DNA from: a virus
Taxonomy: Duplodnaviria > Caudoviricetes
IMG/VR virus record: IMGVR_UViG_3300042698_000010
Coordinates: 1-56,698 of that record
Direction: 5' to 3' (one strand)
Length of the DNA stretch: 56,698 bases
This document shows, in pieces, positions 9,258 to 55,933 of this stretch. The first letter of the stretch is position 1. Each line of letters begins with the position of its first letter. Made by a program: the position numbers and the translations under genes. Below the pieces are notes generated by a model, which did no database searches, was not told where the DNA came from, and worked only from the letters and a program-made list of their open reading frames with translations.

Positions 9258-9581
9258 GTGACCGAAGCCGACAATCCCCGCACCACCTTCGAAGCGTTCG
9301 AATGGGTGGCCTTCGCTGCCTGTGGCCAGCTGGACGCGCCGCCGATGTTCCCCCACCCGACGGACGAAGTCGGCGTTGCGGCCGCCAAGGCGACCTGCGC
9401 CGTCTGCCCGGTCCAGCCCGAGTGCCTGGACCGGGCCATCGCCACTGGCGAGCAGCACGGCGTATGGGGCGGCATGACCGAGGAAGAGCGGCGCAACGCA
9501 CGGCGCCGTGAGTCTCGTGCCCGCAGCCGGAAGCCCGGCGCCATCGCCGTGACGATCGTGCCGCTCGGCGACCTTCTCTGA
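9258..9581 (+). CDS. whiB: WhiB-family Fe-S transcription factor
   Basis: AAC...AKATCAVCPVQPEC...GVWGG followed by a basic tail. Confidence 0.92.
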   Translation: MTEADNPRTTFEAFEWVAFAACGQLDAPPMFPHPTDEVGVAAAKATCAVCPVQPECLDRAIATGEQHGVWGGMTEEERRNARRRESRARSRKPGAIAVTIVPLGDLL

Positions 9582-32650: not shown

Positions 32651-32982
32651 CTTCCCGCGTTACGGGCCCGCGTTTCCCGGGAAACGCGGGAAGGACGTTT
32701 CCGCAGGTCAGGCCAGGTATTGGGGGTCAATCGCCCGCGTATCCCGACTTTGGTCGGAAGACTAGGACCCGTAAGGGGTTAATACAATGATTGGTACATA
32801 CGACGCCGTTACACAGGGTCACATAACTGCGCCTACTGGGGGGCCGTTCATGTCAAGTGTTCATACCCCGCTCAGCTCAAAGTGTTGGGCCGAAACTCGG
32901 GTAACGCGGGAATCCGGGCTCTAAAGGCCCTCTGACCTGCGGAAACGGTTTCCCGGGAAACGCGGGACCGTTTCGCGGGAAG
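32651..32982. repeat. Palindromic origin-like element, copy A
   Basis: Non-coding; inverted GGGAAACGCGGGA-type and TGACCTGCGG arms around an AT-richer core GTTAATACAATG..TGGTACATA; homologous to 55345..55675. Confidence 0.8.
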
Positions 32983-33000
32983 CCCGTTCCCCGGCGGGGG

Positions 33001-33732: not shown

Positions 33733-36624
33733 TCAGAGCAGGAACGTCCCCGCCCCGGTGACCATGCGGTTGATCACCCGCTGCGCCGTCACCTCGCCGT
33801 CACCCACTTCGTTGATCGTGAAGTTGTTGACCACGGCCGGGCCGCCGTTGCCCGTGGGAACGGCCTGAGCGGCCCCCTGGCGGGTCGTACGGTTGCCGGT
33901 GGCACTCGGGGCCACGGACATCCCGAACGGCTGCGTGATGGCCCCCACAGCCGCGACGCCGGATGCCGGTACGGTCACACTCGCCAGCGGTGAGACGGCT
34001 GCGGCAGCCATGCCGATGGCTGCCCGGCTGGCCGCCGAGTTCATCGCGTCGATGCCGTTGACGAAGCCCTGGCCGACCTGCTCGCCGATGACCGTGAACA
34101 CCTTCGACGGCGAGTGAATCCCCAGGAAGTCCTTCGCCGCGTTGACAGCGCCGCTGGCCACGTCCTTGATCGCGCCCGCCAGGCTGCCCGCCAGGTTCTT
34201 CACGCCGTTGATCAGGCCCCGGATCAGGTCCTCACCCGCGTCGACCAGCAGCAGGCCGAAGCCACCGACGGCCTGAAGGATCTTCAGCGGCAGCTCGGTG
34301 AAGTTGTCGATCACGGTAGAGATGACGCCCGAGACCGTTTCCTTCAGCGACTTGAAGGCGCCCGAGAAGTCGCCCTTCAGCAGCGCGGCCACGGTGTTCA
34401 GCGCGGGCACGACCACGCTGGTCAGCATTGCGGCCAGCCGTCCCGCAAAGATGGCCGCCAGTTCGCCGATCAGTCCGATCAGCGGGGTGAGCAGAGGCAT
34501 GAGCGCGGTCAGGATCTGGGCCGCCAGCGCGCCGATCTGCTGAAGCACGGGCGCGAGCGCGAGCGCGACCTGAGCGAGCGCGGTAGAGATCTGGGCGAGC
34601 GACGGCTGAAGGGCCGTGAGCAGCGCGTTCAGGGGCGGCAGCAGTGCAGAGATCAGCGTGTTGAAGTTGTCCAGCAGCGGCTGGATCACAGTCGGCAGCG
34701 CCTGAAGGATCGGCGTCAGAACGGCGTCCAGGATGTTGGCGAGGGTCTGGAAGATCGGCGCCGTCTGGGCGATCACGGAACTCAGGGTGGTGAAGATCGG
34801 CGTCAGGATGGGGCCGATCTGGGCGACCAGCTGACCGGCCACGGCGAGCAGCGGCGCGACGGCGGTAACCAGCTGGCCGATGGCGCCGACCACGGTTCCG
34901 AGGACGGGGGCCAGCGCGATGATCACGGGGGTGAGCGCGGTGCCCAGCTCGGCGATCAGCTGCGCGGCGATCGGCAGCACCGGCGCGATGGCCACCGCCA
35001 CCTGACTGATCGCGTTCGCCAGGTCCTTCAGTACCCCGCTGTCCGCAATGCTGGTGATCGCGTCGCTCAGTCCGGTGGCGAGCGCCTGGACACCGGGCGC
35101 CAGCTCGGCCAGGGCCGGGCCGACGGCGCCGATCGCCTTCACGATGGCTGGCCCCAGGGTGTTCAGGACGGGCGCGAGCAGCGGCGCGAGGGTGCCGAGC
35201 TGCGTGGCGATGGCGCCGATGATCGGGCCGAGCTGCGCGGCCACGACGGCCAGGGTGCGGAAGACTTCCTGAAGCGCCTTCGTCCCCTCGGCCGACTTGA
35301 CCAGCGTCTCGACCTGGCCGGTGATCTGCACCAGGTTGTTGAGCAGCCCGCCGCCCACGCTCTGCGCTGCCGAGAACACGGCGCTCAGGATGCCGCCCAC
35401 GTTGCCGATGATGCCGCCCAGCTGGGCGAACACCGTAAGCGCGGTGTCGACCCACCGCACGGCGTTTCCACCGGTGGCCGCGTTGGTCAGGAACGCGCCG
35501 AGCTTGGACGAGACCGTGGCAATGCCGCTCGACAGCTGCGACCCGAAGGCCTTCGACACCGCACCGGCGATGGACAGGAAGCCCTGCGTAACGTCCTGAA
35601 GCGCCTGAGGCAGGCTGCCGAGCGCGTCGCCCGTTCCCTGAAGGATGTTGGTGACGTTCTTCACGCCCTCGGTCGACGCCACGTACGTCAGCACCGCGGA
35701 CGTGGCCCGGCCGAACTGGCTGCTGATCGTGGCCAGGCCGTCGCGCAGCGGGCCGCCGATAGCCTGCGCCGTTTCCTTGATCTGCCCCGAGAACTTCTCG
35801 AAGAAGACACCCTGGACCCGCTTGCGCAGGTCATCGAACTGGGGCTTCAGCGCGCGGACTTCCTTCGCCGCGGCCTGGGCCGAGGGGGCCAGGTCCTTGA
35901 TCGCCTTCTCGAAGGCCTTCGTGTCCCCCGTCAGCCCCGCCTTGAAGGCGTCGCCCACCCCGGCCGTCGCCAGCTTCAGCGCGCCGATGGCGGCCGCGCC
36001 GCCGAGGATCACGGCGGGCAGCGCGGCGAAGATGCCGACGGCCGGGGCCAGCGCGATGCCCAGCGAGAGAACGGACTGGGCGGCCGAGGCGGCGGCGATT
36101 CCGAGCGCGGCGATTCCGAGCGCGGCCGAGGTTGCCTTGCCCACCCCAGCCAGCGCGCCCGAGACGGTCTTCAGTGCGGACGCCAGCCGGGCACCGTTGA
36201 ACCGCGGTTCGATGTCGGCCCGGATGGTCGGGTTGCGGATCTCACGGATCCGGCGGTCGAAGCCGCGCACGTCCGGAACGACCCTGATCGGAATCTCGAT
36301 GCCAGCCGTCGCGGCCAGGATCATGCGGCGCCAGACGGCGGCGTTGACCTTCGGGACGACAGTGATCTCTACGGTGGGCAGCTTGCGCGTGAGAAGCGAC
36401 AGCTCGAACTGGAAGTCGCTGGTGTCCGCCGTGACCTGAATGGCCACGGGTGAGATCTTGCGGACGGCTCGGGTGATCGCCCGTTCCATGCGCTGTGCAG
36501 CGACACGGGCCCCGCGGTCCAGCGCTCGGGCGAGGCGGTCGGCGAGGTCTTCCGCGGCACGCTCGGCCGGTCCGTCGTCCAGCCTGATCGTGACGAAGCC
36601 AGAGCCGAGGTCCTCATCGGCCAC
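33733..36624 (-). CDS. Tape measure protein
   Basis: 963 aa of Ala/Leu/Ile-rich amphipathic repeats; LGIHSPSKVF motif; downstream of the frameshifting chaperones. Confidence 0.9.
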   Translation of the reverse strand: MADEDLGSGFVTIRLDDGPAERAAEDLADRLARALDRGARVAAQRMERAITRAVRKISPVAIQVTADTSDFQFELSLLTRKLPTVEITVVPKVNAAVWRRMILAATAGIEIPIRVVPDVRGFDRRIREIRNPTIRADIEPRFNGARLASALKTVSGALAGVGKATSAALGIAALGIAAASAAQSVLSLGIALAPAVGIFAALPAVILGGAAAIGALKLATAGVGDAFKAGLTGDTKAFEKAIKDLAPSAQAAAKEVRALKPQFDDLRKRVQGVFFEKFSGQIKETAQAIGGPLRDGLATISSQFGRATSAVLTYVASTEGVKNVTNILQGTGDALGSLPQALQDVTQGFLSIAGAVSKAFGSQLSSGIATVSSKLGAFLTNAATGGNAVRWVDTALTVFAQLGGIIGNVGGILSAVFSAAQSVGGGLLNNLVQITGQVETLVKSAEGTKALQEVFRTLAVVAAQLGPIIGAIATQLGTLAPLLAPVLNTLGPAIVKAIGAVGPALAELAPGVQALATGLSDAITSIADSGVLKDLANAISQVAVAIAPVLPIAAQLIAELGTALTPVIIALAPVLGTVVGAIGQLVTAVAPLLAVAGQLVAQIGPILTPIFTTLSSVIAQTAPIFQTLANILDAVLTPILQALPTVIQPLLDNFNTLISALLPPLNALLTALQPSLAQISTALAQVALALAPVLQQIGALAAQILTALMPLLTPLIGLIGELAAIFAGRLAAMLTSVVVPALNTVAALLKGDFSGAFKSLKETVSGVISTVIDNFTELPLKILQAVGGFGLLLVDAGEDLIRGLINGVKNLAGSLAGAIKDVASGAVNAAKDFLGIHSPSKVFTVIGEQVGQGFVNGIDAMNSAASRAAIGMAAAAVSPLASVTVPASGVAAVGAITQPFGMSVAPSATGNRTTRQGAAQAVPTGNGGPAVVNNFTINEVGDGEVTAQRVINRMVTGAGTFLL

Positions 36625-38333: not shown

Positions 38334-39713
38334 TTAGCGCCCGACCGGCCGGGCCCACCGCGAACCCTGCCGCTGCGCCGCCTCGGGCCGCGCGGCGGCA
38401 GGGTTGTGCTTGCGCGGGGGCTCGTTCCAGTCCAGGTAGGCGACGGCGTACCGGCCCGCGTCCATGCTGTGGTCATGCAGCTTCAGCGGGACTTCCTTCG
38501 GGATGCCGTCGGGCCCCCGCTCGACGGCCCAGACGTAGCCGTTCACCTCGCCCAGGAAGCCGCGCGGCCGCTTCTGCTGCTCGCCGACCAGGTCCCTGCC
38601 CAGGACGCATCCCCTGAAGACGTACAGGCGGGGCTTCCCGTCGCCCGCCGGACGCATGCGCGACTGCATGAGCTGCACGCCGCGAGAGACCGCCTTGCGG
38701 GCCGCCACGGTGGGCAGCCCGAGGTGCTTCGTCAGCGTGGCCCGGTCCTCGGCATCGTGGTCACAGACCACCGCGACCGGCATGCCCTCGGCGTCGCGGT
38801 TCTCGGCCAAAATTTCCTTGATCCGCTTGGCGTGGTCTTCGACCAGGGTCTGTGTCTGGTGGATCTCACGGGTCAGGTACATCCGGCCGTCGGGGTCGAC
38901 CCGCCACCACTGGCAGACGAACGGGTTGCTGTACCCGAAGTCCACGCTCAGGATCAGCGGCCAGTCCTTCGGGATCGGGAACCACTCGATCGCGTTGACG
39001 TTGTCGCGCCAGTCATCGAAGACCAGGCCTTCGGCTGCGGCCCAGAGGCCGTCCCGGTAGCGCAGCCGACGGACGCCGGTGAGTGAGTCCAGGAACGCCA
39101 GGTAGTCGGTTCCCGCGTCGGTCCAGGTCCCGTCCGGGTTGCACAGGTACGGGTTGTCCTCATGCACGGACGTGTACATGCGCATCTTGTTGGACGCGTC
39201 GTCGGCGCGCTTCTTCAGCCAGTGGTCCGGGTGGTCCGGGTTGCACGCCGCAACGATCTGCTTGTAGGTCGCCGCGCTGCCGCGCAGACGGGTGAGCAGC
39301 GTCTCGTAGGCAACCACCGACACCTGGTTGGCCTCGTCGATCAGCACCCGGTCCAGAGACATGGACAGCACCTTGCCGGGGTTGTCCATGCCGCCGACCA
39401 TGATCATGCTGCCGTTCGGGTAGCGGTAGCCCGCGGGCTTCGACGCCGAGCCGCCGAACCACTTCACCTTCCCGCTGGCGATCTCTTCCGCCGCTACGAA
39501 CTGCTCGAAGGCGACCAGGGTCGACGCGGTCAGCGAGGCGTGCGTCTGGCGCACGATCAGCGACTGCATGCCGCGGACCGAGCTGCTGTCCGCATGCAGC
39601 TTCATCAGCGCGGCAGCGGTCTTGCCCGTGCCCGCGCTGCCCACGATGGCCACCTCGGGCCCGTGGTCGCGGATCAGGTCGGCCGCTGCGCCGCGGGCGA
39701 CGAACTCACGCAC
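38334..39713 (-). CDS. terL: Terminase large subunit
   Basis: Walker A GSAGTGKT, Walker B VLIDEA, ACNP, nuclease SVDFGYSNP and DHSMDAGRY. Confidence 0.92.
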   Translation of the reverse strand: MREFVARGAAADLIRDHGPEVAIVGSAGTGKTAAALMKLHADSSSVRGMQSLIVRQTHASLTASTLVAFEQFVAAEEIASGKVKWFGGSASKPAGYRYPNGSMIMVGGMDNPGKVLSMSLDRVLIDEANQVSVVAYETLLTRLRGSAATYKQIVAACNPDHPDHWLKKRADDASNKMRMYTSVHEDNPYLCNPDGTWTDAGTDYLAFLDSLTGVRRLRYRDGLWAAAEGLVFDDWRDNVNAIEWFPIPKDWPLILSVDFGYSNPFVCQWWRVDPDGRMYLTREIHQTQTLVEDHAKRIKEILAENRDAEGMPVAVVCDHDAEDRATLTKHLGLPTVAARKAVSRGVQLMQSRMRPAGDGKPRLYVFRGCVLGRDLVGEQQKRPRGFLGEVNGYVWAVERGPDGIPKEVPLKLHDHSMDAGRYAVAYLDWNEPPRKHNPAAARPEAAQRQGSRWARPVGR

Positions 39714-40191
39714 TACGGGGCCGCTCTTCCAGGATGATCCGGATGCCGCCGTTGCCCTGGCTGTCATCGTCGGCCTTCGGCGCCGTGACGCCGTTCAGCT
39801 TCGTGATGCTCTCGACAAGGCGGCGCGCCTCATCGACGGCGCGCAGCTTCACGGCCCGGTCGTCCGGCGTCAGCTCGTTGCCGTTCTCGTCATAGATCGC
39901 CGGGGCATCCGCGTCCAGCATGTCGAGCGTCTCGGACAGAAGGTGTTCCAGCCGCAGGTTCGCCGTGTCCCGCATCGTGTCCGCGGTCTCTTCGGCGCGC
40001 AGCGTGGCGGCGGCCATGGCGTCGCCGACGGCGCGCAGCGCTGCGGCCGGGCTCGGCCGCCCCTCGCTGTCCGTGAAGCCGCACTTGTCGGCGATCTCGG
40101 ACCAGTGCGCGCCGCGCACCCGCAGCTTCATGGCCCTGTCCAGCCGCTGCTGGGCGAGCAGCTCGGCGGCCACGTTGTCGCTGTCGGCCAC
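39706..40191 (-). CDS. terS: Terminase small subunit (HTH)
   Basis: AMKLRVRGAHWSEIADKCGF HTH; directly upstream of terL. Confidence 0.7.
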   Translation of the reverse strand: MADSDNVAAELLAQQRLDRAMKLRVRGAHWSEIADKCGFTDSEGRPSPAAALRAVGDAMAAATLRAEETADTMRDTANLRLEHLLSETLDMLDADAPAIYDENGNELTPDDRAVKLRAVDEARRLVESITKLNGVTAPKADDDSQGNGGIRIILEERPRSA

Positions 40192-40553
40192 GATGGCCCC
40201 CTTCCGTCGTGACCAGGGTATCGGGCCCGGACACAGCGAAGCCCCGGCAGCGGTTGAGACTGCCGGGGCTTCGCCGCGCAACCACCCGAAGGGCACCACC
40301 GGGACCGGGGCGGACACAGTCAGGATAACGCACGCATGGCACAGCGAAGCCCCCGGTCCGCCAGGATGCCGGGGGCTTCGCCGCGAGCGCGGGGGAAGCG
40401 CGTGCGGGCAGTACCCACCCTATCGCTACAGCCGTGGTGCAACCGACCGTCGCGGACATGTCATACACCATCGGCGTCCGTGGTGCAACAGCATCCGTGA
40501 TCATGTGCTAGTGTTGAAAGTCACGCGAAGAAACACACCAAAGGCGGTGTCCC

Positions 40554-42404
40554 GTGGCTATCGACCCCTTCCCCAGCAAGCGCAACGATCCTGCGTGGGC
40601 CGACTTCACCGAGTCGCACGATCTCACCCAGGTTCCCCGCCATGCCCCGGCCGTCCCGCCGGGCATCGACGTCCAGGCGATGATCAAGCTTGTCGAGCAG
40701 GCACAGAACGTACAGTCGGCGATCCTCGCGCCCGAGCGCGAGAAGCTGCCCTGGTGGGCGAAGCACGACGTGGCCAAGACGACGTACTGGACGCTGCTCG
40801 TCCCCACGCTGGTGACCGGCTGCGCCAACACCGCGGCGCACCAGTGGGGGTCCACCGGCCCCGCCATCACCGGTGGCCTGGTCTCGGCCGCCGCCACCAC
40901 GCTCGGCGTGGTCGGCCTGAACAACAACTGGCGCAGCCAGGGGTTGGCCGTGATGCTCGCCGGTGCCGTCGGCGGTGCGTCCTGGTCGGCCGCTGCGGCC
41001 GGTGGCGGCTGGACCGAGGTCATGGCGTGGCTGGCCGCCGCCAGTGCCACGCTCGGGTTCAAGCTGATCTGGAACCGGAAGCACGCCGAGTCGAAGGCGA
41101 AGGTGGCCCTCACCGAGGCGAAGGTTCGCACCGAGCTGGCGAAGGGTGACGCGGTCAAGTCGAAGTCAGCCATCACGGACTCACTCGGCCTGCTGCGCCT
41201 TCAGGAAATGCAGCGCGCTGCAACGGCCGCCGCCGCACCCGCGTTGCACGGTGCAACGCCCGAAGAGCGCGCGTTGCGCTGCGCTGTCTGGGACGTGTTC
41301 CAGGTCGAGCTGTACAGCTGCAACGTGCGTTACACCAGGACCGGCTACGTCGCAACGGTCGGCCTGCCCGTTGCGCTGTCGCGCAACATCGCGCACTCGG
41401 CATGGGACAAGGTCTCGTCCGCGTTGCGGGCCGACGGCCGGTTCGTCGTCACGGACGGGCGGCTGTCCAACGAGCTGGATGTCAAGTTCCTGGACAACGC
41501 GAAGGTGTCGACCGAGCCGCTTCCGTGGGACGTATCGGTCATGCCGGACAACCCGGCGCAGCTGATGAGCATCGGCGTGGACACCGAGACCGGTGAGCCG
41601 GTCCATGTCCAGTTCGATGAGCGCCTTCTCGTCTGCGGCGCCTCGGGCACGGGCAAGTCCTGGTCGACCCGGCCCATGCTGGGCCATGCGCTGATCAACG
41701 GCGACATGGTCATGATCGATGGCAAGGGTGAAGAGGCGAACGTCTGGTGCAAGGTCTGCCGCGTCGCGGTCGAAGCCGAAGAGATCGAGCAGCTGATCGA
41801 TGCGCTGCACGCCGAGATGAACACGCGGAAGGCCATCCTGGCCGCCCGCGGGATCAGCGTCTGGGACGGCCCGCAGCTCACCGTGTTCGTGGACGAGAAC
41901 CAGGTTGTCCTGTCCGCCATCGGGAAGGACGCCGGTCGGATGCAGCGCTACCGCGAACTGAGCAGCCTCGGCCGCTCGCGCGGGATCGTGCTGTGGATCG
42001 CCACGCAGAAGCCGACCATGTCCGGCTCGGCCCCCGGCATCGACAGCCAGATGGCGGGCAACTTCCTGAACCGCTTCGCGCTGCGCGTGGCGAGCGAGCA
42101 GGAAGCCCGCACGGCTCTGGACGACAACGCCTACTACGAGCCCAACAAGATCCCCGAGGGGCGCGAGTGGCGGGGCCACGGCTACTGGAAGGGCTACGGC
42201 CCGGCGCTGATCCGCACCTGGACGATGGACGACGATGCGGTCCGGCGGCTGCCGGTGAGCATCTGGCGGGGCCAGTCGGAAGAGCCGCTGGACGTCCGCG
42301 CCAAGCGCTGGCTGGAAGCCAACCCGGACGGCTCACAGCGTGCGATGGCCGCTGCCCTCGGTGTCCCGCGCAGCACGCTGCAAGAGGCCCTGAAGGGCCT
42401 GTGA
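40554..42404 (+). CDS. FtsK/SpoIIIE-family membrane DNA translocase (TraB-like)
   Basis: About 4 N-terminal TM helices; Walker A GASGTGKS, IDGKG, Walker B VFVDE, GRSRGIVLWIATQKP; C-terminal HTH SQRAMAAALGVPRSTLQEAL. Confidence 0.85.
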   Translation: MAIDPFPSKRNDPAWADFTESHDLTQVPRHAPAVPPGIDVQAMIKLVEQAQNVQSAILAPEREKLPWWAKHDVAKTTYWTLLVPTLVTGCANTAAHQWGSTGPAITGGLVSAAATTLGVVGLNNNWRSQGLAVMLAGAVGGASWSAAAAGGGWTEVMAWLAAASATLGFKLIWNRKHAESKAKVALTEAKVRTELAKGDAVKSKSAITDSLGLLRLQEMQRAATAAAAPALHGATPEERALRCAVWDVFQVELYSCNVRYTRTGYVATVGLPVALSRNIAHSAWDKVSSALRADGRFVVTDGRLSNELDVKFLDNAKVSTEPLPWDVSVMPDNPAQLMSIGVDTETGEPVHVQFDERLLVCGASGTGKSWSTRPMLGHALINGDMVMIDGKGEEANVWCKVCRVAVEAEEIEQLIDALHAEMNTRKAILAARGISVWDGPQLTVFVDENQVVLSAIGKDAGRMQRYRELSSLGRSRGIVLWIATQKPTMSGSAPGIDSQMAGNFLNRFALRVASEQEARTALDDNAYYEPNKIPEGREWRGHGYWKGYGPALIRTWTMDDDAVRRLPVSIWRGQSEEPLDVRAKRWLEANPDGSQRAMAAALGVPRSTLQEALKGL

Positions 42405-42522
42405 GGCGGTGGCCGGACACCCGGCCGGGCCCCTGCCGGAACGATCGGCAGGGGCCCCTTGCAGCCTCGCACCGGCCGCCCTGCGGCCAACGGTCCGGCC
42501 GCCCACTGACCTGCGGAAACGG

Positions 42523-42559
42523 CGAAGCCCCCACCCTCTCGCGGAAGGTGGGGGCTTCG
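42523..42559. terminator. Bidirectional terminator
   Basis: CGAAGCCCCCACC / GGTGGGGGCTTCG. Confidence 0.7.
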
Positions 42560-42565
42560 TCCTGC

Positions 42566-42874
42566 TCAGCGCTTGTAGAGCGACTGCCACAGGTCTTCCA
42601 GCTCGGCGGGCCACTCGCATTCGTTCTCGCAGAAGTCGACGTGCGCGCCGCACTCGCAGTTCGGCGCCCGGTGCAGCAGCACAACCTTCGCCCAGCCGCT
42701 TCGGTAGAAGTCACCGCCGCCCTTCAGCTCGACCGTGTAGCTGCCGTCCACGTAGTCGAGCGTCCGGACGACCGGGCCGTAGCTGGTGCCGTCCAGGTCG
42801 CCGACGAAGCGGAAGCGGTCGCCGAACAAAAGCTGGTTGAAGTTCAGGACGGTGCCGGTCGGGGTAATCGCCAT
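42566..42874 (-). CDS. Hypothetical protein with a C-terminal Cys cluster
   Basis: GAGAGGA RBS; promoter TTGCAC-N17-TAGCGT at 42910-42938. Confidence 0.75.
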   Translation of the reverse strand: MAITPTGTVLNFNQLLFGDRFRFVGDLDGTSYGPVVRTLDYVDGSYTVELKGGGDFYRSGWAKVVLLHRAPNCECGAHVDFCENECEWPAELEDLWQSLYKR

Positions 42875-42960
42875 GGTGTGTTCCTCTCTCGCGGTTGCTT
42901 GCAAGAGCAACGCTACAGGGCCGGGGCTGCAAGTGCAACCCCGGCCCAGGATGATGTACA

Positions 42961-43299
42961 TCAGCTGTCGTACCCGTCCGGGTCGCCAGTCTCGCAGGTC
43001 ATCGAGAGCACCGTCACAGACCAGCTGCGGCAGTCGTCACGGTCGTTCAGGCCCGCGTCGATCCACGCGTCCAGCCGTGACGGGATCTCGTCCATCGGGA
43101 TGTAGTCGCCGTGGAAGGTGACGTCCAGCGTGGCCCGCACGCGCTTCGTGGTGCGCTTGCGGTCGACCGCCGCAGCGGCCTCACGGGCCGCTTCCAGCTG
43201 CGCCGCCTTCTCACGGACGCGGGCTTCGTGGCGGGCGGCCCACTCGTCCCATGCGGCCGCGTCTTCCAGCGCGTCCCAGTCCACCGGCTCGAAGCTCAT
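42961..43299 (-). CDS. Hypothetical protein
   Basis: ATGA coupling, RBS GAGGA. Confidence 0.7.
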   Translation of the reverse strand: MSFEPVDWDALEDAAAWDEWAARHEARVREKAAQLEAAREAAAAVDRKRTTKRVRATLDVTFHGDYIPMDEIPSRLDAWIDAGLNDRDDCRSWSVTVLSMTCETGDPDGYDS

Positions 43300-43634
43300 A
43301 CCGGGTCCTCGCTTCCCAGGTTCATCGTCCACCGGTCGGTCTTGACGGCGATGTCCAGGCCGATCTTGCCTTCGCGGTGAAGCTCGTCCGCCAGCTTCAT
43401 GCGAACGGACAGCTCGGCCATGTCGCGGATCATCTCGTGCCCGTCGTACTGATGGGCGGGCACCGACTCACTGGCGTACCAGACACTCACGCCGTCGGTC
43501 GCCTCGGCGATCACCGTTACCAGGTCAAGCCCGGTGGCCAGCTGTGACACCACGGCCAGGTGCTCGGCGGCCAGCTGCTCATCGGCCGGGGCCGCCCCCT
43601 CGGGGGCGGCCTGGCTCTGCTGCTCGCTGCTCAC
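43296..43634 (-). CDS. Hypothetical protein
   Basis: GTGA coupling. Confidence 0.7.
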   Translation of the reverse strand: MSSEQQSQAAPEGAAPADEQLAAEHLAVVSQLATGLDLVTVIAEATDGVSVWYASESVPAHQYDGHEMIRDMAELSVRMKLADELHREGKIGLDIAVKTDRWTMNLGSEDPV

Positions 43635-43801
43635 GACTCGTCCACCGCACCGGCCGGACGGCCGTAGGTGACGTCGCTCTCGCGGACCGGCTGGACCGCG
43701 CTGTAGTCGACCTGGTGCGGCCGGTCGGTGGCGGGCTGCGCCTGGCTGCTCGCGGCCGCCTGCTTGGCCGCCCAGTCCGTGCCCGGCTTGTCGTCGCTCA
43801 T
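43631..43801 (-). CDS. Small hypothetical protein
   Basis: GAGAGGA RBS; promoter TTGCAA-N17-TAGTCT at 43833-43861. Confidence 0.65.
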   Translation of the reverse strand: MSDDKPGTDWAAKQAAASSQAQPATDRPHQVDYSAVQPVRESDVTYGRPAGAVDES

Positions 43802-43900
43802 GGTGCGTTCCTCTCGGTTGGTTGCTGATACAAGACTACAGCCCCCGCCCTCAAGTTGCAAGGCGGGGGCAGGTGGGGTGTCAGCGAAGCTGCCGAAGGC

Positions 43901-44101
43901 TCACGGCGCGTCAATCAGGTTGGCGGCCGAGTCGTGCGCGGCCAGCCAGGTGTTGTTGTAGGCGCTGTCGCCGCTGGGCTGCGGCATGCTGGCGCGGATG
44001 TGGTCGGCCAGCTCACGCCGGATCAGCGCGGTCGAGCACGGCCAGCGATCGTGGCACCAGATGCAGATGCCGTCGTGCTTCGCGTGGTCCATGGCAGCCA
44101 T
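43901..44101 (-). CDS. Small Cys/His protein
   Basis: H...CIWCHDRWPCST Zn-finger-like; RBS GAAGGGGG. Confidence 0.6.
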   Translation of the reverse strand: MAAMDHAKHDGICIWCHDRWPCSTALIRRELADHIRASMPQPSGDSAYNNTWLAAHDSAANLIDAP

Positions 44102-44114
44102 GTCGGCGCCCCCT

Positions 44115-44405
44115 TCAGTCGTTGTCGCGGTTGTAGCGCAGCAGCGCTCGGGCCACGTCGTCCAGCCGCAGCATCACGATGCTGTCGACCAGCTTCGGCA
44201 GCCGGTGCGGCTCGTTGGCCGAGAGCTTGAAGAAGCCCGCCCAGAGGTTCGCCCGGACGACCGGCCCCCGCAGCGCAGCGGCTTCGTCCAGGGTCGTCAG
44301 AGCCCGCGTGGCCTTCGCCACGATGGCGTTGTGCCGGATGTCCCAGGCCGGGATGTTCGCGGCGTGGACGGCGTCCTGAACGGCCGCGGTGATGTAGTCG
44401 CGCAT
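44115..44405 (-). CDS. Hypothetical protein
   Basis: GAGAGGA RBS; promoter TTGCGT-N17-TAGGCT at 44465-44493. Confidence 0.7.
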   Translation of the reverse strand: MRDYITAAVQDAVHAANIPAWDIRHNAIVAKATRALTTLDEAAALRGPVVRANLWAGFFKLSANEPHRLPKLVDSIVMLRLDDVARALLRYNRDND

Positions 44406-44486
44406 CGGGCTTCCTCTCTCGAAGATCTGAGACGTAGTCTCTGTCTCGCGGTTGCTTCGCTGCCAGCCTAGCGGTCCTGCCTCAGA

Positions 44487-44508
44487 AACGCAACACCCCG
44501 CCAGCAAC
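44487..44508. repeat. 22-bp terminator/promoter cassette repeat, copy 1
   Basis: AACGCAACACCCCGCCAGCAAC; also at 48740 and 53968. Confidence 0.85.
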
Positions 44509-44614
44509 CGGGGGGTTTGCTGACGGGGTGCTACGGGCCTCGCGGCCGTGGGGGGTACAAACCACCCTAGAGGGTGACGGGGTGTGCCAGTTACCGCGAC
44601 GCCTTGACGGGCCC

Positions 44615-45625
44615 TCAGTCCAGGCCGAGCACGTCGTTCGGGTGGTACATCGGGACCCCGTCGACCATGGTGTAGGGCAGCCGCCCGCGGTGCTTCAGCG
44701 AGCGGATCGTTCCGGGGGCGCAGCCCTTCAGCGCGGCCGCCTCGGCCGTGGTCAGCAGCTTCACCGTGGGGTCGCTGGTGACGGCCAGCTCGGCCTCGGC
44801 CATGGCGGCGGCCAGCGTATCCTCACGGTCCTGGCTGTGAAGCTGGACGCCGCGGAAGTAGTCGGCGATCGGCGCACGCGAGATGCTGCGGTATCCGCCG
44901 TTGTCCTCGGCCTTGTACGGCCCCTCAGACGCCTCGGGCGCAGCAGCCGGGGTGATGGACCGGGCAGCCGGTGCGGGGGCCACAGCGGGCCGCTCAGGGC
45001 CCGTGGCGGTACCGGCGAGCACGGCGGCCAGGTTGGCGTCCGCGCCCTGGCTGATCCGATAGCGCTGGATCTCACCGAGCTGGACCGAGAGCTGAGCGTC
45101 CGTGGCGGCGAAGCCCTTCGTCAGCCGCCAGACGGCCGCCTTGCTGAGCTTGCGGCCGAGCCCCTTGCCGTTGGCCGCGCGGTTCGCGTGCCAGAGCAGC
45201 AGGCCGCTGCGCCGCTGCTGCTCGATGTCGGTACCCGTCCGGTAGGCGACGACCCGGCGCGCGACGAAGGCGACGCCCTCACCGGCCGCGGTCATCGCCA
45301 GCGGCGTGAACGCCATGACGACCGCCTCGGCCGTGGTCGGGGCCAGCGCGATGCCGACGCCCGAGGCGGCCAGCGGCACCAGCCACATGCCCGCTCGGAC
45401 CGTGGCGGGGGTGTGCTGCCCCATGAGCGTGACGGCCAGCGCGACCAGTGCGCAGATGAGCGTTGCGCCCTCACCGGCGGCCACCAGGCCGAGGGCCGAG
45501 GCGCCGCGGTGAAGCACGTGGTTCATGTTGACGTAGGTGGCGACGGCGCCAGCAATGCCGACGGCGGCCATCGGGGTGGCGGCCAGCGCGAGGACGGCTG
45601 TCTGGCCCTTCGTGAGCTTCAGCAT
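44615..45625 (-). CDS. Spd-like multi-TM membrane protein with a C-terminal HTH_17 domain
   Basis: About 4 TM helices (LVAAGEGATLI, TPLAMTAAGEG), Pro/Ala linker, LLTTAEAAALKGCAPGTIRSLKHRGRL; architecture recalls Streptomyces plasmid spread proteins. Confidence 0.65.
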   Translation of the reverse strand: MLKLTKGQTAVLALAATPMAAVGIAGAVATYVNMNHVLHRGASALGLVAAGEGATLICALVALAVTLMGQHTPATVRAGMWLVPLAASGVGIALAPTTAEAVVMAFTPLAMTAAGEGVAFVARRVVAYRTGTDIEQQRRSGLLLWHANRAANGKGLGRKLSKAAVWRLTKGFAATDAQLSVQLGEIQRYRISQGADANLAAVLAGTATGPERPAVAPAPAARSITPAAAPEASEGPYKAEDNGGYRSISRAPIADYFRGVQLHSQDREDTLAAAMAEAELAVTSDPTVKLLTTAEAAALKGCAPGTIRSLKHRGRLPYTMVDGVPMYHPNDVLGLD

Positions 45626-45642
45626 GATCGTTGCCTCTCGGT

Positions 45643-45834
45643 TCATCGGTGGGTGCGACGCCGGTTGCGTGTGCGTCGCGGTCGGGTGTTGCGGGGGTGC
45701 AGCAGTGCGACGACCAGTGCGACGTTGCACGCGACACCGGTTGCGGTCCACGTCGCATCGGCCGGGGTGGTGGCGATCAGCGCCCAGCTCAGGGCTGCGA
45801 CGGTCCATGCGACGGCGTGCAACGGGCGCTTCAC
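45643..45834 (-). CDS. Small 2-TM membrane protein with a basic tail (Spd-like)
   Basis: RBS AGAGGGG before GTG; promoter-like TTGACA-N17-AACACT at 45909-45937. Confidence 0.6.
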   Translation of the reverse strand: MKRPLHAVAWTVAALSWALIATTPADATWTATGVACNVALVVALLHPRNTRPRRTRNRRRTHR

Positions 45835-46010
45835 GGCGGGCCCCTCTGCGTTGGGGACGGGCGGCCCGGCCTGTCGACATCCGGGCGGCCCGTCGTCTTT
45901 CTACTTCCAGTGTTGCACCAGCGTCGCAGGCTGTCAAGCACGGTGTTGCAAGAGGGCGTTGCACGTTGCGGCCCCTGTTGCAGTGTCGCAACGGGGGCCG
46001 TGGCAGCGTC

Positions 46011-46976
46011 TCAGTCCAGCGGCCGAGCAACCGTGGTGGTGACCGGCCCGGTGACGCCGAGGTGGCGTGCAACGCCTACAGCGGCCCCCTTCAGGCTGCT
46101 GCTGCTGACGCCGAACCCGAGGGTCGTCCAGCGGCCCCGCAGCAGGGCCACGGCCACCTCTGTCCCGTCAGCGTGGATGATGCCGACCGAGTCGCTGTCC
46201 ATCACGATGCGGACCTCGGTCACGGCGGGCGGCTCGGGCTGCTGCGCGGTCAGCGCCGTTGCAGCTGCGGACAGCTGCTCGGGCGTGAACACGATGCCCG
46301 CCGAGCTGAGGGCGGCCGCCAGGACGTCTTCCTCGGCGTCACCGGCGACTCGGGACGGGTCGACCGCCGGTGCCTCGGTGGTGCTGGTGACCGAGACGGC
46401 GGTGCTGTACTCGCGGGTCACGGTGATCCGGACCGTTCCGGCGAAGCCGTCGCTGCGGGCCAGGCCGTCGGCCGCCGCGGTGACCGAGCCGAAGCCGTCG
46501 CGGTGCCACATGGTCTCGGCGTAGGGGTCCTCGGCGTAGAAGCCCCCGTCGCCATCGGCGCCGATCAGGCCCTGGAAGCCGTCCGCGCCGTGGACCAGGG
46601 CAACGCCCTGGGTCTCGCTCTGCATGTCAACGCTCACCTGCCGGGCCTTGACCGGCTCGGCGTCGGGCTGCTGCGCCTCGGGCTTGGCCGGGGCCAGGTA
46701 GTCGCCCTCGCCGGTCGCGGGCTGCATGCTGGCATCCACGCGGTCCTGGTGCGCCAGCTCGGCCGCCTCTTCGGCCGCCAGCAGCTTCAGGCAGCGCTTG
46801 CAGTCGACATCGGCGGTGGTGACGTAGTACCGCTCGCTGGCCCGGTTGCCACCGCACTGCGGGCTGACACCCCAGCCGTCGTACTTGCGGGCGTAGTGGA
46901 CCTTGCCACTGCCGAGCTTCACAGCCACGCGGGTGAAGGTCTGGCCGCTGCGGTCGGTGTCCGTGGTGCCGATCAT
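46011..46976 (-). CDS. Hypothetical protein
   Basis: RBS GAAGGG; promoter TTGCAC-N17-TAGAGT at 47017-47045; KVH...C...VDCKRC Zn-ribbon-like N-terminus. Confidence 0.75.
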   Translation of the reverse strand: MIGTTDTDRSGQTFTRVAVKLGSGKVHYARKYDGWGVSPQCGGNRASERYYVTTADVDCKRCLKLLAAEEAAELAHQDRVDASMQPATGEGDYLAPAKPEAQQPDAEPVKARQVSVDMQSETQGVALVHGADGFQGLIGADGDGGFYAEDPYAETMWHRDGFGSVTAAADGLARSDGFAGTVRITVTREYSTAVSVTSTTEAPAVDPSRVAGDAEEDVLAAALSSAGIVFTPEQLSAAATALTAQQPEPPAVTEVRIVMDSDSVGIIHADGTEVAVALLRGRWTTLGFGVSSSSLKGAAVGVARHLGVTGPVTTTVARPLD

Positions 46977-47135
46977 CGTGTTGCCCTTCGTTCGTTGCTT
47001 CCTGCTGACAGAAGTAACTCTAGCCGGTCCTGCGTTGCAGTGCAACCCCTTCCCAGCAACGTTCTGATCCGCACGGCGGGCGGCATGCGACGGCCCCCGT
47101 TGCAGTGGTGCAACGGGGGCCGTGACCTGCGACGT

Positions 47136-47342
47136 TCAGAGCTCGATGCCGAGGTAGCGCCTCACGTCCTGGCGGACGTTCATCAGGGTCCGGTGGTCGC
47201 TCGGCGACTTCGCCATGGTGATGGACTGGTGGCCGTCTCGGCTCACCCGCCAGTGGCCGCCACCGGTGGGCCGGACGGTACAGCCCCGGCGCTTCAGCTC
47301 TCGCAGGATCTTGTTAATCTCTTTGTTCATGCCGACGCTCAC
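47136..47342 (-). CDS. hicA: HicA-like toxin (dsRBD-fold RNase)
   Basis: ILRELKRRGCTVRPTGGGHWRV...SPSDHR...NVRQDVRR. Confidence 0.7.
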   Translation of the reverse strand: MSVGMNKEINKILRELKRRGCTVRPTGGGHWRVSRDGHQSITMAKSPSDHRTLMNVRQDVRRYLGIEL

Positions 47343-47752
47343 GACGCACGCTCGATCCGCAGCGACTTGACTTCAAGCGCCTTGACCTCGCCCGACGGGC
47401 GGCACTGCTCGATCAGCTCGACCACCAGCAGAGGCGTGCCTTCCAGCTCGGCCACATCCTTGGCGTAGCTGTTCCAGCTGGCCTGGTGCGTGGTCACGTC
47501 GCTGACGCGCAGCTCACCGTTGGGGCCGGGCTTCAGCACCCGGTAGCCGATCAGCTTGGCGCCACGGCAACGCCAGGTGTGGTGGGTCCAGCCAGCCTGG
47601 TCCGTGGCCCCGTTGTAGACGTAGACCAGCTCGGCGTAGAACGGCTGGATCAGGTGGCTGACGTAGTCGGCCTTCATGATCCCGGCGCCGGTGAAGCGGG
47701 CGCGGACTGTGGTGACGGTGAACGGTGTGACCTCGGTCAGCTTGGCGACCAT
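47339..47752 (-). CDS. Hypothetical protein
   Basis: RBS GAAGGGA before ATG 47752. Confidence 0.7.
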   Translation of the reverse strand: MVAKLTEVTPFTVTTVRARFTGAGIMKADYVSHLIQPFYAELVYVYNGATDQAGWTHHTWRCRGAKLIGYRVLKPGPNGELRVSDVTTHQASWNSYAKDVAELEGTPLLVVELIEQCRPSGEVKALEVKSLRIERAS

Positions 47753-47823
47753 GGTGCTTCCCTTCGGGGTAGGGTCCTGCGGGGGATAGGGGCGGCCGCC
47801 GGTTGCGGCCGCCCCGTCGTTCC

Positions 47824-48675
47824 TCAGATGCGGGTCAGCGTGTCCACGAAGGGCCGGTTGCGCGGCATCATCCACTGACCGGGGGTCTCGTCCCAGTTGA
47901 CGCCCACGTAGGCCCGGCCGAAGTTCGGGTGGTCGGTGCTGGTGACGTAGGACACGTCCAGGCCGTTGACGGTCCCGGTGCGCAGGTTGCCCGCGGTGTC
48001 GATGCCGCGGACGGTGGTTCCCTTCGGCCACAGCGCTGCAATGCAGTCCACGAACCGCGCCTTCGACCCGGCGTCCGCGTTGGTCCGCTGGATCCGGCCC
48101 GCCTTCGCCCACGTGGCCACCTCGCTGTCCGCGCTGGCCAGCTTCCGGATGCGGTTCATCAGCGCGGCGGACGCCTCGCGGCTGGCGTAGACCACGTCGG
48201 TGCGCTCGGCCAGGTCCGCCTCGGTGATCGGGTCGGCTTCCATGTTGCGGCGGAAGGCGTCCTCACCCGCGGCGTAGCGGCTGCCGATGCGCTCGGCCAC
48301 GTAGGTGCCGTCGGTGCGGTCCTCGACCGCGAAGCCGTCGCGGGTCTCGACCACCCGGTAGCGCTCGGGCTGCGAGGGCTTCGGCTCGGCGGGCTGCGGG
48401 ACGATGTGGGCCGGGCCACCGGCCTGGCCGGTGAGGACGCGGGTGTCGTTGTTGTCCTTGTCCAGCTGCGCCTTCGCGTCCGCGCCCAGGTCGGTGAGGT
48501 CCGCGTACTCGTGCGGCGCGACCATCAGGCCGAGGCGGTACAGCCGTACGTAGGTCGCCGACTTGGCGTTCCGGGCGTGGTGCACCCGCAGCGTGGTCGG
48601 GCCGCCGTTGACGGTGTGCGTGGTGGCGGTGCGGATGATGTAGGCCTGGATGCCGCTCAGTCGGTTGTAGCTCAT
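47824..48675 (-). CDS. Hypothetical protein
   Basis: GAGAGG RBS; promoter TTGCGT-N17-TAGCTT at 48718-48746. Confidence 0.75.
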   Translation of the reverse strand: MSYNRLSGIQAYIIRTATTHTVNGGPTTLRVHHARNAKSATYVRLYRLGLMVAPHEYADLTDLGADAKAQLDKDNNDTRVLTGQAGGPAHIVPQPAEPKPSQPERYRVVETRDGFAVEDRTDGTYVAERIGSRYAAGEDAFRRNMEADPITEADLAERTDVVYASREASAALMNRIRKLASADSEVATWAKAGRIQRTNADAGSKARFVDCIAALWPKGTTVRGIDTAGNLRTGTVNGLDVSYVTSTDHPNFGRAYVGVNWDETPGQWMMPRNRPFVDTLTRI

Positions 48676-48739
48676 GGTCGTTGCCTCTCGCTTCGTTGCT
48701 TCCTGCTGACAGATCTAAAGCTACACGACTCGGGGCCGC

Positions 48740-48761
48740 AACGCAACACCCCGCCAGCAAC
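48740..48761. repeat. 22-bp terminator/promoter cassette repeat, copy 2
   Basis: AACGCAACACCCCGCCAGCAAC. Confidence 0.85.
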
Positions 48762-48801
48762 GGATGCTGACGGGGTGTTGTTGCACGTCTGACCTGCGGT
48801 G

Positions 48802-49047
48802 TTACGCCTGCTGCGACGGCTCGGGCTGCGCCGTTGCGCTCTGGCACTTGCCGTTGCAGTCCGGGCTGCAACGCTGCGACGCGTCGCGCGACGGCTGCGG
48901 CAGCGCGTTCCAGGAAGCCATGGCGCCCAGGAACGCCAGGGCCAGGACGACCAGCCACACCGCGATCGGCAGGCCGCGGAAGATGCCGAGGACGATCACG
49001 CACCATGCGCCCGTATAGCCCAGCGCGGCGATGTACTTGACGGTCAT
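48802..49047 (-). CDS. Small 2-TM membrane protein
   Basis: Two hydrophobic helices; CSPDCNGKC tail. Confidence 0.65.
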   Translation of the reverse strand: MTVKYIAALGYTGAWCVIVLGIFRGLPIAVWLVVLALAFLGAMASWNALPQPSRDASQRCSPDCNGKCQSATAQPEPSQQA

Positions 49048-49049
49048 GG

Positions 49050-49271
49050 TCAGCCCTTCTTCGACGGGGTGTTCTCTTCCAGCCACAGTTGCCAGCGCCG
49101 GTCGCGCCGCACCTCGGCCAGGTCCTCGGTGATGCACAGCCAGGCCACGCAGAAGTTGACCAGTGACAGGGCCGCGACGGCCCACCAGTTGCCCCATGCG
49201 CCGAACACGATCAGCACCTGAAGCCCGGCCGATGCGGCCGCGGTGACGCCGAGCAGAGTGCGAGCGTTCAT
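49050..49271 (-). CDS. Small 2-TM membrane protein
   Basis: ATGA coupling with the RuvC gene; hydrophobic. Confidence 0.65.
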   Translation of the reverse strand: MNARTLLGVTAAASAGLQVLIVFGAWGNWWAVAALSLVNFCVAWLCITEDLAEVRRDRRWQLWLEENTPSKKG

Positions 49272-49843
49272 GATCCGATTCCTTCCGGCCACTTGACGGC
49301 CAGCAGCGAGTCAAGCCGGGGACGTCCGGCGGTGGGCAGCGGCTGCCCGATGCGGGCGTAGCCCATGGCTGCCAGAGCGTAGGCGTCCGCCATGTCGTAC
49401 TTCCCGTGCGCCACCTTGTGCGCCTTCAGGTCCAGCCCGTGACGCTCGGCCAGGGCTGACACCATCTCTGCCTTGCTGGCCCGGCCGTTGCCCGTGGTGT
49501 AGGCCTTCAGGCTGGTGGGCGCGATCACGGCGAACGGGACGCCCATGCGCCACAGGCGGGTGCGGACCATGAGGCGCAGCCCCGCCAGCTGGTCGACCGC
49601 GTCGCCCTTCGAGCCGTAGGCCGCGCCTTCGATGCAAACCAGGTCGGCGCGCTTGCCCTCGGGCTGCCCGTCCGTCCACTGCGTGGGCGACAGGACGAAC
49701 ATCACGCACTGCCGCGTGAGGCGGTCAAGGCGGGCTTCCAGCCTCTCGTCCGCGGACGTCTGGAAGACGTGCACCGACTGGCCGTCGCTGACGCCGGTGG
49801 ACGTCAGCGACAGGTCCAGCCCTACAACGCGCAGCGGCCTCAC
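49268..49843 (-). CDS. ruvC: RuvC-like Holliday junction resolvase
   Basis: VVGLDLSLTSTG, VCIEG, PTSLKAYTTGNGRASK, DMADA. Confidence 0.88.
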   Translation of the reverse strand: MRPLRVVGLDLSLTSTGVSDGQSVHVFQTSADERLEARLDRLTRQCVMFVLSPTQWTDGQPEGKRADLVCIEGAAYGSKGDAVDQLAGLRLMVRTRLWRMGVPFAVIAPTSLKAYTTGNGRASKAEMVSALAERHGLDLKAHKVAHGKYDMADAYALAAMGYARIGQPLPTAGRPRLDSLLAVKWPEGIGS

Positions 49844-55298: not shown

Positions 55299-55344
55299 GG
55301 CTACAGACTACCGGACCTGTGGCCGTAGTGCAACTGGTACTGAG

Positions 55345-55675
55345 CTTCCCGCGAAACTTCCCGCGTTTCCCGCGGAACGCGGGAAGGGGTATCACCGCAG
55401 GTCAGGGGGTGTTTCAGGGCCCGCCGTCCCGGGTTTCCCGAGGTTGGCCGGAAAACTAAGACCCCTATAGGTGTTAATACAATGCCTGGTACATAACACC
55501 CACGAATCCGGACATACAGCACCAACGCGCGCGGGCATGAACAGATCAAGTAGTTGATACCCCGCTCAGCTCAAAGTGTTCAGCCGAAAGTTGGGAAACC
55601 CGGGACATCCGACCCTAAAGGGCCTCTGACCTGCGGAAACGGTTTCCCGGGAAACGCGGGAAGTTTCGCGGGAAG
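55345..55675. repeat. Palindromic origin-like element, copy B
   Basis: Perfect 28-bp terminal inverted repeat (55345-55372 / 55648-55675), AT-richer core, upstream of the primase-helicase; homologous to 32651..32982. Confidence 0.8.
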
Positions 55676-55933
55676 ATCCACTTCGGGCCCGGCGTGGCGT
55701 CAGCCGGTCGGCCCGCAGGGGTACAGTGGACACGCCGTCAGCGGCCCGCCCGGTCCCGCTGCCCCTGGCCACACGAGTGGTCGTCTCTGAGCAGCGGTTG
55801 CACTGATCACATGGTGTGTGTCACCATGGGCCCAGCAACGACGAAGGGGACCAGCCCTCGGAAGGCCGGTCCCCAACAGTTGGCGCGACAACCGCGAAGA
55901 AGCACACCCCAACAACCGAAGGGTACCACCGCT

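Follow-up and report, generated by a model that had tools for sequence, protein, structure and literature searches.

The stretch of DNA analyzed here (the window) is the whole 56,698-base virus record IMGVR_UViG_3300042698_000010, which has terminal direct repeats, a completeness rating of 100% and a GC content of 66-71%. It is a complete 56.7-kb Woodruffvirus-like (cluster BG) Streptomyces siphophage, and it carries a gene for a DNA translocase and, 2.2 kb away on the opposite strand, a gene for a membrane protein with a helix-turn-helix (HTH) domain, which is called the partner below and which is preceded by a small open reading frame (ORF). A first-pass annotation of this DNA had pointed out all three ORFs, and all three were confirmed where it had placed them:

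40554-42404, plus strand: predicted membrane-anchored double-stranded DNA (dsDNA) translocase of the Tra/TraB family, 616 aa, in which four predicted transmembrane (TM) helices and a stalk precede an FtsK-type motor, and the HTH at the C-terminus is truncated
44615-45625, minus strand: four-TM membrane protein (the partner), 336 aa, in which a disordered linker joins a helical region in the cytoplasm to a C-terminal winged HTH (wHTH) of the BldC/Xis/MerR type
45643-45834, minus strand: small putative two-TM protein, 63 aa, with two hydrophobic segments, the first gene of a two-gene unit with the partner

The translocase matches the Pfam family FtsK_SpoIIIE (PF01580; E 1.5e-6, 28.3 bits, cut-off 24) and an FtsK/SpoIIIE-like family of PHROG (E 1.1e-31), and it contains a Walker A motif, GASGTGKS, at residue 362 and a Walker B motif, VFVDE, at residue 444. 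Its homologues in related phages carry the annotation "FtsK-like DNA translocase". In the AlphaFold2 model (mean pLDDT 64) four helices at residues 72-176 are followed by a stalk made of a long helix, then by the alpha/beta motor and, near the C-terminus at residues 579-613, by an HTH of three helices, and on this model the protein is anchored in the membrane by its N-terminal part. The number of helices is a prediction, two of the four passing a hydropathy threshold of 1.4. The four-helix membrane region is conserved in all of the 22 phage-type sequences compared, and the Walker motifs and TM-region residues are invariant across them. The C-terminal HTH, for which no Pfam HTH family gave a match, aligns with helices 1-3 of the plasmid wHTH and in the phage-type sequences examined stops right past the recognition helix. 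The window translocase consequently has no wing on the domain with which TraB reads clt sites, and the Ala/Pro-rich linker of plasmid Tra proteins is absent from translocases of the window type as well.

To place the motor among FtsK-like proteins the translocase was compared by tblastn with 72,556 plasmid records. It matched 23 of them, and the best 14 are small or medium-sized Streptomyces plasmids or their relatives. The top match, 60.6% identical over residues 325-598 (E 9e-98), lies on two 8.7-kb plasmids whose gene order GntR / Tra / small ORF / DUF2637 protein is the korA / tra / spdA / spdB order of pIJ101. Against the Tra of such an 8.7-kb pIJ101-like plasmid the translocase scores 336 bits, and against pIJ101 Tra itself 107 bits (34% identity, E 2e-28 in the pairwise comparison; 34.5%, E 3e-21 in tblastn). 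EccCa and FtsK in plasmid records reach 26-29% identity and about 58-60 bits (E 1e-6 to 4e-6), solved FtsK reaches 22 bits (E 4e-4), and the scores with the NCBIfam models EssC, EccC and HerA are far under their cut-offs. A database search gave 204 relatives for the motor domain. The ones listed with 60-68% identity come from Streptomyces, are 600-660 aa long and are encoded on plasmid-sized contigs of 3-10 kb or as chromosomal copies, and most of them have a MarR-type C-terminal wHTH. Foldseek matched the translocase fold to the conjugation coupling protein TcpA (6e-12), the FtsK motor (4e-11), EccC (4e-7) and HerA (6e-5). A quick maximum-likelihood search with 124 motor domains gathered 89 plasmid or AICE (actinomycete integrative and conjugative element) rows in a single clade (SH-aLRT 99). 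The phage-type rows, that of the window included, were placed next to this clade and outside it, in an unresolved set, and pIJ101 Tra and gp71 of the Streptomyces phage YDN12 stood together on a long branch. Judged by BLAST, NCBIfam, solved-chain and fold comparisons, the translocase groups, among FtsK-like motors, with the Tra/TraB proteins of Streptomyces plasmids, as the first-pass annotation had supposed, and not with chromosomal FtsK, EccC or HerA.

The AlphaFold2 model of the partner (mean pLDDT 74.6) has four long helices at residues 6-130. A cytoplasmic part that is helical and some 55 residues that are disordered lead from these to a confidently modeled wHTH at the C-terminus, which superposes on BldC, mycobacteriophage Xis, RdfS, the N-terminal domains of MerR proteins and RacA (Foldseek probability 1.00, with E not below 0.12 for so small a domain; TM-score 0.56-0.76 on the small target). 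GenBank records label homologues of the partner "hypothetical" or "HTH DNA-binding protein". Its first approximately 200 residues are homologous to Streptomyces plasmid proteins (35 records, 40-50% identity), some of which are named "conjugal transfer protein" in RefSeq. With one protein of that name the partner shares 41% identity over 250 aa (E 5e-34), and the gene of this protein adjoins that of an 815-aa P-loop protein. In two plasmids of 15-17 kb the homologue ends a GntR-headed operon directly upstream of a P-loop protein of 815-817 aa, and in the pZL12-like phage-plasmid pSLE1 a gene whose product is 48% identical to the partner is part of a block headed by GntR, the last gene of which encodes a large ATPase of conjugative transfer.

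Relatives of the partner's TM domain were encoded in at least 197 of the 600 candidate genome stretches examined. Of the 80 genomic loci retained, 79 belong to Streptomyces and the remaining one to Actinacidiphila. At 60 of these 80 loci a same-strand ORF of at least 648 aa starts 0.7-4.4 kb downstream of the partner homologue (one ORF per locus, chosen from 130 that remained of 443 after filtering by third-position GC). Thirty of the 60 match FtsK_SpoIIIE at E <= 1e-3, 24 of them at or above the Pfam cut-off, five match AAA_22 only and 25 have no match; among the 20 loci without a large downstream ORF several are on short contigs. A phmmer search with Tra queries recovered ATPases in just three of the 80 loci. 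An upstream ORF that matches a plasmid GntR regulator is present in 46/80. The phage-type C-terminal HTH was found in none of 81 cellular homologues of the partner. The scan of species-representative genomes used a mixed alignment; of 171 pattern matches obtained with a phage-only alignment none was confirmed. Because none of the 81 cellular homologues carries the phage-type HTH, the partner reads, in its sequence, as the membrane domain of a transfer operon joined to a different, phage-specific DNA-binding domain.

The first-pass annotation had also described the partner as Spd-like. What stands of this description is the TM domain shared with transfer-operon proteins of plasmids and AICEs; a significant match to pIJ101 SpdB was not found and the similarity to DUF2637 is below threshold (13.9 bits against a cut-off of 22.8, spanning model positions 3-134 of 161). 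Neither pIJ101 SpdB nor the closest plasmid's DUF2637 protein gave a significant match, and an assignment as SpdB was rejected. In language-model features, which we use as a lead only, the TM domain is nearest to DUF2637 clusters (0.93) and SpdB_N clusters (0.87), and these features also show SpdB-type proteins with a C-terminal HTH as an architecture that newer Pfam recognizes. In architecture and position alone the layout resembles that of the SpdB and SpdB2 spread proteins, with four helices, a C-terminal wHTH, a small hydrophobic ORF upstream and, in YDN12, a place next to the tra homologue. The coding signal of the small 63-aa ORF is weak: its third-position GC of 0.80 is below that of its neighbors, a gene caller based on this measure did not pick it, and Pfam, PHROG and NCBIfam scans gave no family match. 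A small hydrophobic ORF lies at the same position in three of four relatives (L008, L011 and YDN12, not Mischief19), its sequence not being conserved. Taken together, it is highly probable that the parts are what they appear to be, a Tra/TraB-family motor and a membrane protein of the kind that partners TraB.

The translocase and partner genes travel together in this phage lineage. Thirteen of the 15 phage records with the partner also match the translocase, and the two genes are about 2-4 kb apart in all four loci with enough flank, which include metagenomic relatives at 81% and 42% translocase identity. In YDN12 they lie side by side on one strand, with the partner ahead of the pump as in plasmids. 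In the window they do not form one plasmid-like operon, and in this respect the first-pass description is not supported as it stands. The 815-aa ATPase beside the partner's plasmid relative has no similarity to the phage motor or to YDN12 gp71, and the closest plasmid lineage of the motor (pIJ101-like) differs from the lineage that bears the partner's relatives; therefore the pair was not inherited here as one plasmid operon. The small genes at 42566-44507 and the genes at 46011-49292 have no match in the five plasmid loci compared. An FtsK-like gene that is not accompanied by this partner is present in seven jumbo phages of Streptomyces. Phages of Streptomyces account for 20 of the 21 records matching the motor and all 15 matching the partner, in a collection rich in phages of non-mycelial actinobacteria.

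YDN12 encodes a full-length homologue of pIJ101 Tra. This protein, gp71, annotated only as "FtsK-like DNA translocase", occupies the same genome position; its alignment with pIJ101 Tra covers 653 residues at 40% identity (E 8e-145) and extends from the N-terminal part through the wHTH. To the window translocase it is 35% identical in the motor only; the gene is on the opposite strand relative to its neighbors and the wHTH is full, not truncated. Two Tra lineages are therefore seen at the same position within the genus Woodruffvirus (YDN12 locus L013, 6041-8101, and window 40554-42404), which on sequence looks like non-orthologous replacement from plasmids. The sole exception to the linkage is phiSAJS1 (two records), which has no translocase match. 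Its membrane-HTH gene (L095, 3004-3956) is annotated as two ORFs, gp74 and gp75. The two genes may have decayed together, or the split may be an error of sequencing, and it is one case.

Among deposited phages YDN12 is the sole relative of the window at the nucleotide level (77% identity over 12% of the stretch that holds these genes), and the window proteins match the cluster BG or Woodruffvirus group, namely YDN12, TP1604, Maih, Geonosis, Mischief19, Xkcd426 and phiSAJS1. Members of this group are siphoviruses whose heads are prolate and whose genomes are circularly permuted (PMC5511901), and it is because of this permutation that the window has a terminal repeat and a primase gene split over its ends. 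Geonosis is described as forming clear plaques and is predicted to be virulent (PMC11536984). The PHROG and Pfam scans identified terminase, portal, capsid, adaptor, tail and lysis genes together with primase, polymerase, exonuclease, helicase, RuvC-like resolvase, WhiB-like and HNH genes. Integrase, recombinase, ParA/ParB and repressor families were not found in the ORFs scanned (13 + 28 with Pfam and 13 + 36 with PHROGs, a few ORFs below about 100 aa being left out), and within this scope a complete siphovirus gene set without a recognizable integrase or parA, as first described, is borne out. The translocase gene is the sole rightward gene between a leftward structural block, which ends in the terminase genes, and a leftward early block, and it adjoins the terminase genes in the circular map. 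Some other features of the genome may be mentioned here: a tape-measure-like ORF of 963 aa (33733-36624, minus strand) lies between the terminase and portal genes and apart from the tail genes, an order unusual for a siphovirus; a 68-aa ORF (47136-47342, minus strand) belongs to a PHROG family in which the protein from Mischief19 carries the annotation of a HicA-like toxin; and the WhiB-like regulator is encoded at 9258-9581 on the plus strand.

The noncoding DNA around the two genes contains the following features:

40432-40443 and 40478-40489, plus strand: CCGTGGTGCAAC in two exact copies in direct orientation, 65-122 nt upstream of the start of the translocase gene
42523-42559, no strand: hairpin with a 16-bp stem (inverted repeat, 94% complementary) between the convergent translocase gene and leftward operon
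45835-46075, minus strand: upstream region of the two-gene unit, with a promoter-like site TTGACA-N17-AACACT (by eye) and GTGCAAC at 45912, 45958 and 46067

The repeat CCGTGGTGCAAC has 24 matches at up to two mismatches, of which only the two upstream of the translocase are exact, and these are a candidate promoter, operator or loading site. A copy of the shorter motif GTGCAAC lies about 70 nt upstream of the translocase start in all six related loci (L006-L011). The window has 25 copies of it against 8.5 +/- 2.7 expected, a number reached in none of 100 shuffles, and 12 of the 25 fall in the 12.3% of the genome called intergenic (P 1e-5). Examples are found at 47040-47114, 33000, 42933 and 48780, and often the copies are arranged as GTTGCA..TGCAAC hairpins. 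Because the motif is also present in other intergenic regions, we take it for a probable promoter or operator element of the phage and not for a clt. Upstream of the two-gene unit TTGACA-N17-AACACT is a putative promoter; a consensus scan of this region called no sigma-70 site. The leader of the unit is conserved in L008, and two more GTGCAAC copies lie inside the small 63-aa ORF. The hairpin at 42523-42559 is a probable bidirectional terminator; it has no T run and was not called in the scan for terminators. Two perfect GC-rich hairpins separate the genes on the terminase side from the translocase, at 40236-40274 (15-bp stem) and 40344-40381 (13-bp stem), both with GCGAAGCCCC. The ORF at 39706-40317 probably starts further downstream, since the first of these hairpins falls within its longest reading.

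In YDN12 six same-strand copies of GGAACGG are found within 124 bp between gp70 and gp71 (L013, 5827-5950), just upstream of gp71, and the 8.1-kb locus has no other copy. Direct-repeat clt regions upstream of tra are described for pIJ101-type plasmids (PMC11600335, PMC3583192), and by this analogy the array is a candidate clt-like direct-repeat array. Elsewhere in the window two near-identical cassettes of about 330 bp (32651-32985 and 55342-55678) have inverted arms of 35-37 nt about 262 nt apart and are full of TTCCCGCG(A/T)(A/T)AC repeats; they hold 10 of the 17 genomic copies of TTCCCGCG, against 4.5 expected. Both are in divergent intergenic regions, one beside the primase gene, and they may be origin or operator arrays.

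It is an open question by what means a phage, having adsorbed to one hyphal compartment, comes to occupy the whole of a septated, multicellular mycelium. For plasmids this task is carried out by TraB and Spd proteins. It is known that TraB hexamers pump dsDNA, that SpdB2 is a pore-forming, DNA-binding protein with four TM helices which interacts with TraB, and that TraB, SpdB2 and small Spd proteins form a complex, spdB3, spd79 and spdB2 being needed for spread within the recipient mycelium (as described in PMC4447253). We propose tentatively, as a possibility to be taken seriously rather than as the expected outcome, that the phage encodes a conjugation-derived membrane apparatus for DNA translocation which works between hyphal compartments. 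Slightly more doubtful is the specific step, drawn by analogy with the plasmids, that phage DNA would be moved across the hyphal cross-walls by this apparatus. In such a model the motor would assemble after infection as a hexamer at the membrane of the cross-walls together with the partner and perhaps the small two-TM protein, the HTH of the partner would tether or guide phage DNA, and the motor would pump the replicating dsDNA genome into the next compartment, as TraB and Spd proteins do for plasmids. One adsorption event could in this way seed several compartments with no extracellular step. The only plausible cargo is the replicating phage genome, because lysogeny and maintenance genes were not found and the isolated relatives are reported or predicted to be virulent.

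Several observations weigh against this proposal. Relatives form ordinary clear plaques and lyse liquid cultures, as described for Geonosis (PMC11536984), and no such system is needed for that. As the HTH of the translocase has neither wing nor linker, clt-type sequence reading may be lost or changed. Beside the translocase gene there is no array of the TRS (TraB recognition sequence) type, sought as at least four 8-mers within 400 bp, and Pfam scans revealed no GntR regulator in the phage. The partner is not significantly similar to pIJ101 SpdB (BLASTP E 1.1; hhalign of a 40-sequence profile, probability 0.7%) or, by BLASTP and the 40-sequence profile, to the DUF2637 protein of the closest plasmid. 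The different plasmid lineages nearest to motor and partner have already been mentioned, and that the genes are confined to Streptomyces phages could simply be due to the hosts of the donor plasmids. The truncated HTH and the lack of a recognizable clt array beside the gene keep the model uncertain.

Other explanations of the same genes were weighed against transport between compartments. One of them, which we regard as unlikely, is that the pump acts at sporulation or developmental septa, where it moves phage DNA into prespores or disturbs host chromosome segregation, with the outcome, no more likely, that phage genomes are carried in spores or host development is redirected. This would be in accordance with the WhiB-like regulator of the phage, with phage papers that group FtsK-like genes with host developmental genes (parts of PMC13587820 and bioRxiv 10.1101/2024.02.16.580700), and with the fold of the partner HTH, which is that of BldC, a Streptomyces developmental regulator, and of RacA, a chromosome anchor in sporulating Bacillus. 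However, a BldC-like fold is a generic MerR/Xis winged HTH, the motor is far nearer to plasmid Tra than to chromosomal FtsK, and the Pfam and PHROG scans found no lysogeny or carrier-state genes.

Equally improbable in our view is a role in DNA handling inside the infected compartment, that is in replication, concatemer resolution or packaging. Such a role has been proposed for Geonosis (PMC11536984), and the position of the translocase gene next to the terminase genes and a weak PHROG match to a terminase family (E 1.9e-7) would fit it. A cytoplasmic role does not, however, require the four-helix membrane region kept in every phage-type sequence, and the phage encodes a separate large terminase and a RuvC-like resolvase. 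A purely cytoplasmic role is disfavored because the membrane anchor is conserved and the translocase gene is linked to that of a partner from transfer operons.

It is very unlikely that the two genes are passengers, repeatedly acquired from plasmids and of little or no use to the phage. The exchange of window-type and YDN12-type motors within one genus, 35% identical and oppositely oriented, and phiSAJS1, with its split partner and no motor, are what passengers would lead one to expect, but the pair is retained in nearly all records of the lineage, metagenomic phages at 42-81% protein identity share the arrangement, the catalytic motifs are invariant and the motif upstream of the translocase is conserved in all six relatives. 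Just as improbable is that the module poisons the transfer of resident plasmids or AICEs, expels superinfecting DNA or mobilizes host DNA: both proteins are 41-68% identical to plasmid components and so near enough to interact with them, and a truncated HTH fits a dominant-negative or non-specific pump, but the intact Walker motifs and strong conservation of the whole motor favor an active pump over a decoy.

If the proposed transport between compartments is true, the phage spreads inside the mycelium without virus particles. The novelty of this idea is smaller than the first-pass annotation claimed, since both a suggestion by Thoma et al. in 2015 and the plasmid-phage pZL12 precede it. In the literature searched we found no paper that links cluster BG phage genes to plasmid Tra; the phage papers found say "FtsK-like", and in the parts that bear on these genes they tie them to replication or host development (PMC11536984, PMC13587820, bioRxiv 10.1101/2024.02.16.580700). 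New are the non-lysogenic setting, the full-length pIJ101 Tra homologue in YDN12, the replacement of Tra lineages within a genus and the two remodeled HTH domains. A wider reading, rather unlikely as it stands, is that virulent Streptomyces phages have in a re-tooled conjugation pump a counterpart of the movement proteins of plant viruses, which serves a virion-free advance and has been swapped at least twice between plasmid lineages within the genus. The re-tooling, which belongs to this joint reading and would share its low probability, would consist of the wingless HTH of the motor and a Xis/BldC-type HTH grafted onto the partner. Cultured relatives exist (YDN12, Mischief19 and Geonosis, the last as DSM 114972), and the question is therefore open to direct testing.

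Among known systems, chromosomal FtsK/SpoIIIE and TcpA of pCW3 have the same motor fold and the same logic of a membrane anchor and a C-terminal DNA-reading domain. They differ in that sequence similarity is marginal (E 4e-4 and 0.012 against the solved chains), and compared with chromosomal FtsK the phage motor has neither the long linker nor the wing of the gamma domain. Closer in kind are pZL12/phiZL12 and pSLE1, which like the window phage combine a tailed-phage genome with Streptomyces transfer genes. According to a paper that cites it, pZL12 is a tailed phage-plasmid with working transfer genes, and pSLE1 was annotated by its authors from pZL12 (PMC4487206). Elements of this type are described as plasmid-prophages of about 86-90 kb with ParAB and integrases (PMC4487206), whereas the window phage has 56.7 kb and no maintenance or integration genes were found in it. 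The same lack of lysogeny and plasmid-maintenance genes sets its lineage apart from pZL12 and from the temperate phages with SpdB2 homologues.

With pIJ101 Tra (KilA) the phage translocase shares the domain order of membrane anchor, FtsK-type motor and C-terminal HTH, and where pIJ101 has SpdA and SpdB the phage likewise has a multi-pass membrane protein and a small membrane ORF. The phage version, however, is found in a virulent tailed phage, its HTH is wingless, there is no GntR-type KorA, significant similarity of its proteins to SpdA or SpdB was not found, and its membrane gene is at a distance and on the other strand. In pSVH1 TraB works with SpdB3, Spd79 and SpdB2, and a TRS or clt array as in that system was not identified at the window locus. 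It was for SpdB2 homologues on actinophages that Thoma et al. suggested that they might assist spreading of phage DNA (PMC4447253); the phages concerned, phiC31 and VWB, are temperate, and neither is among the 15 phage records that match the partner. Likened by its published description, the pSVH1 system nevertheless offers the same working model as the one proposed here, that of a hexameric pump, an oligomeric DNA-binding protein with four TM helices and small membrane proteins.

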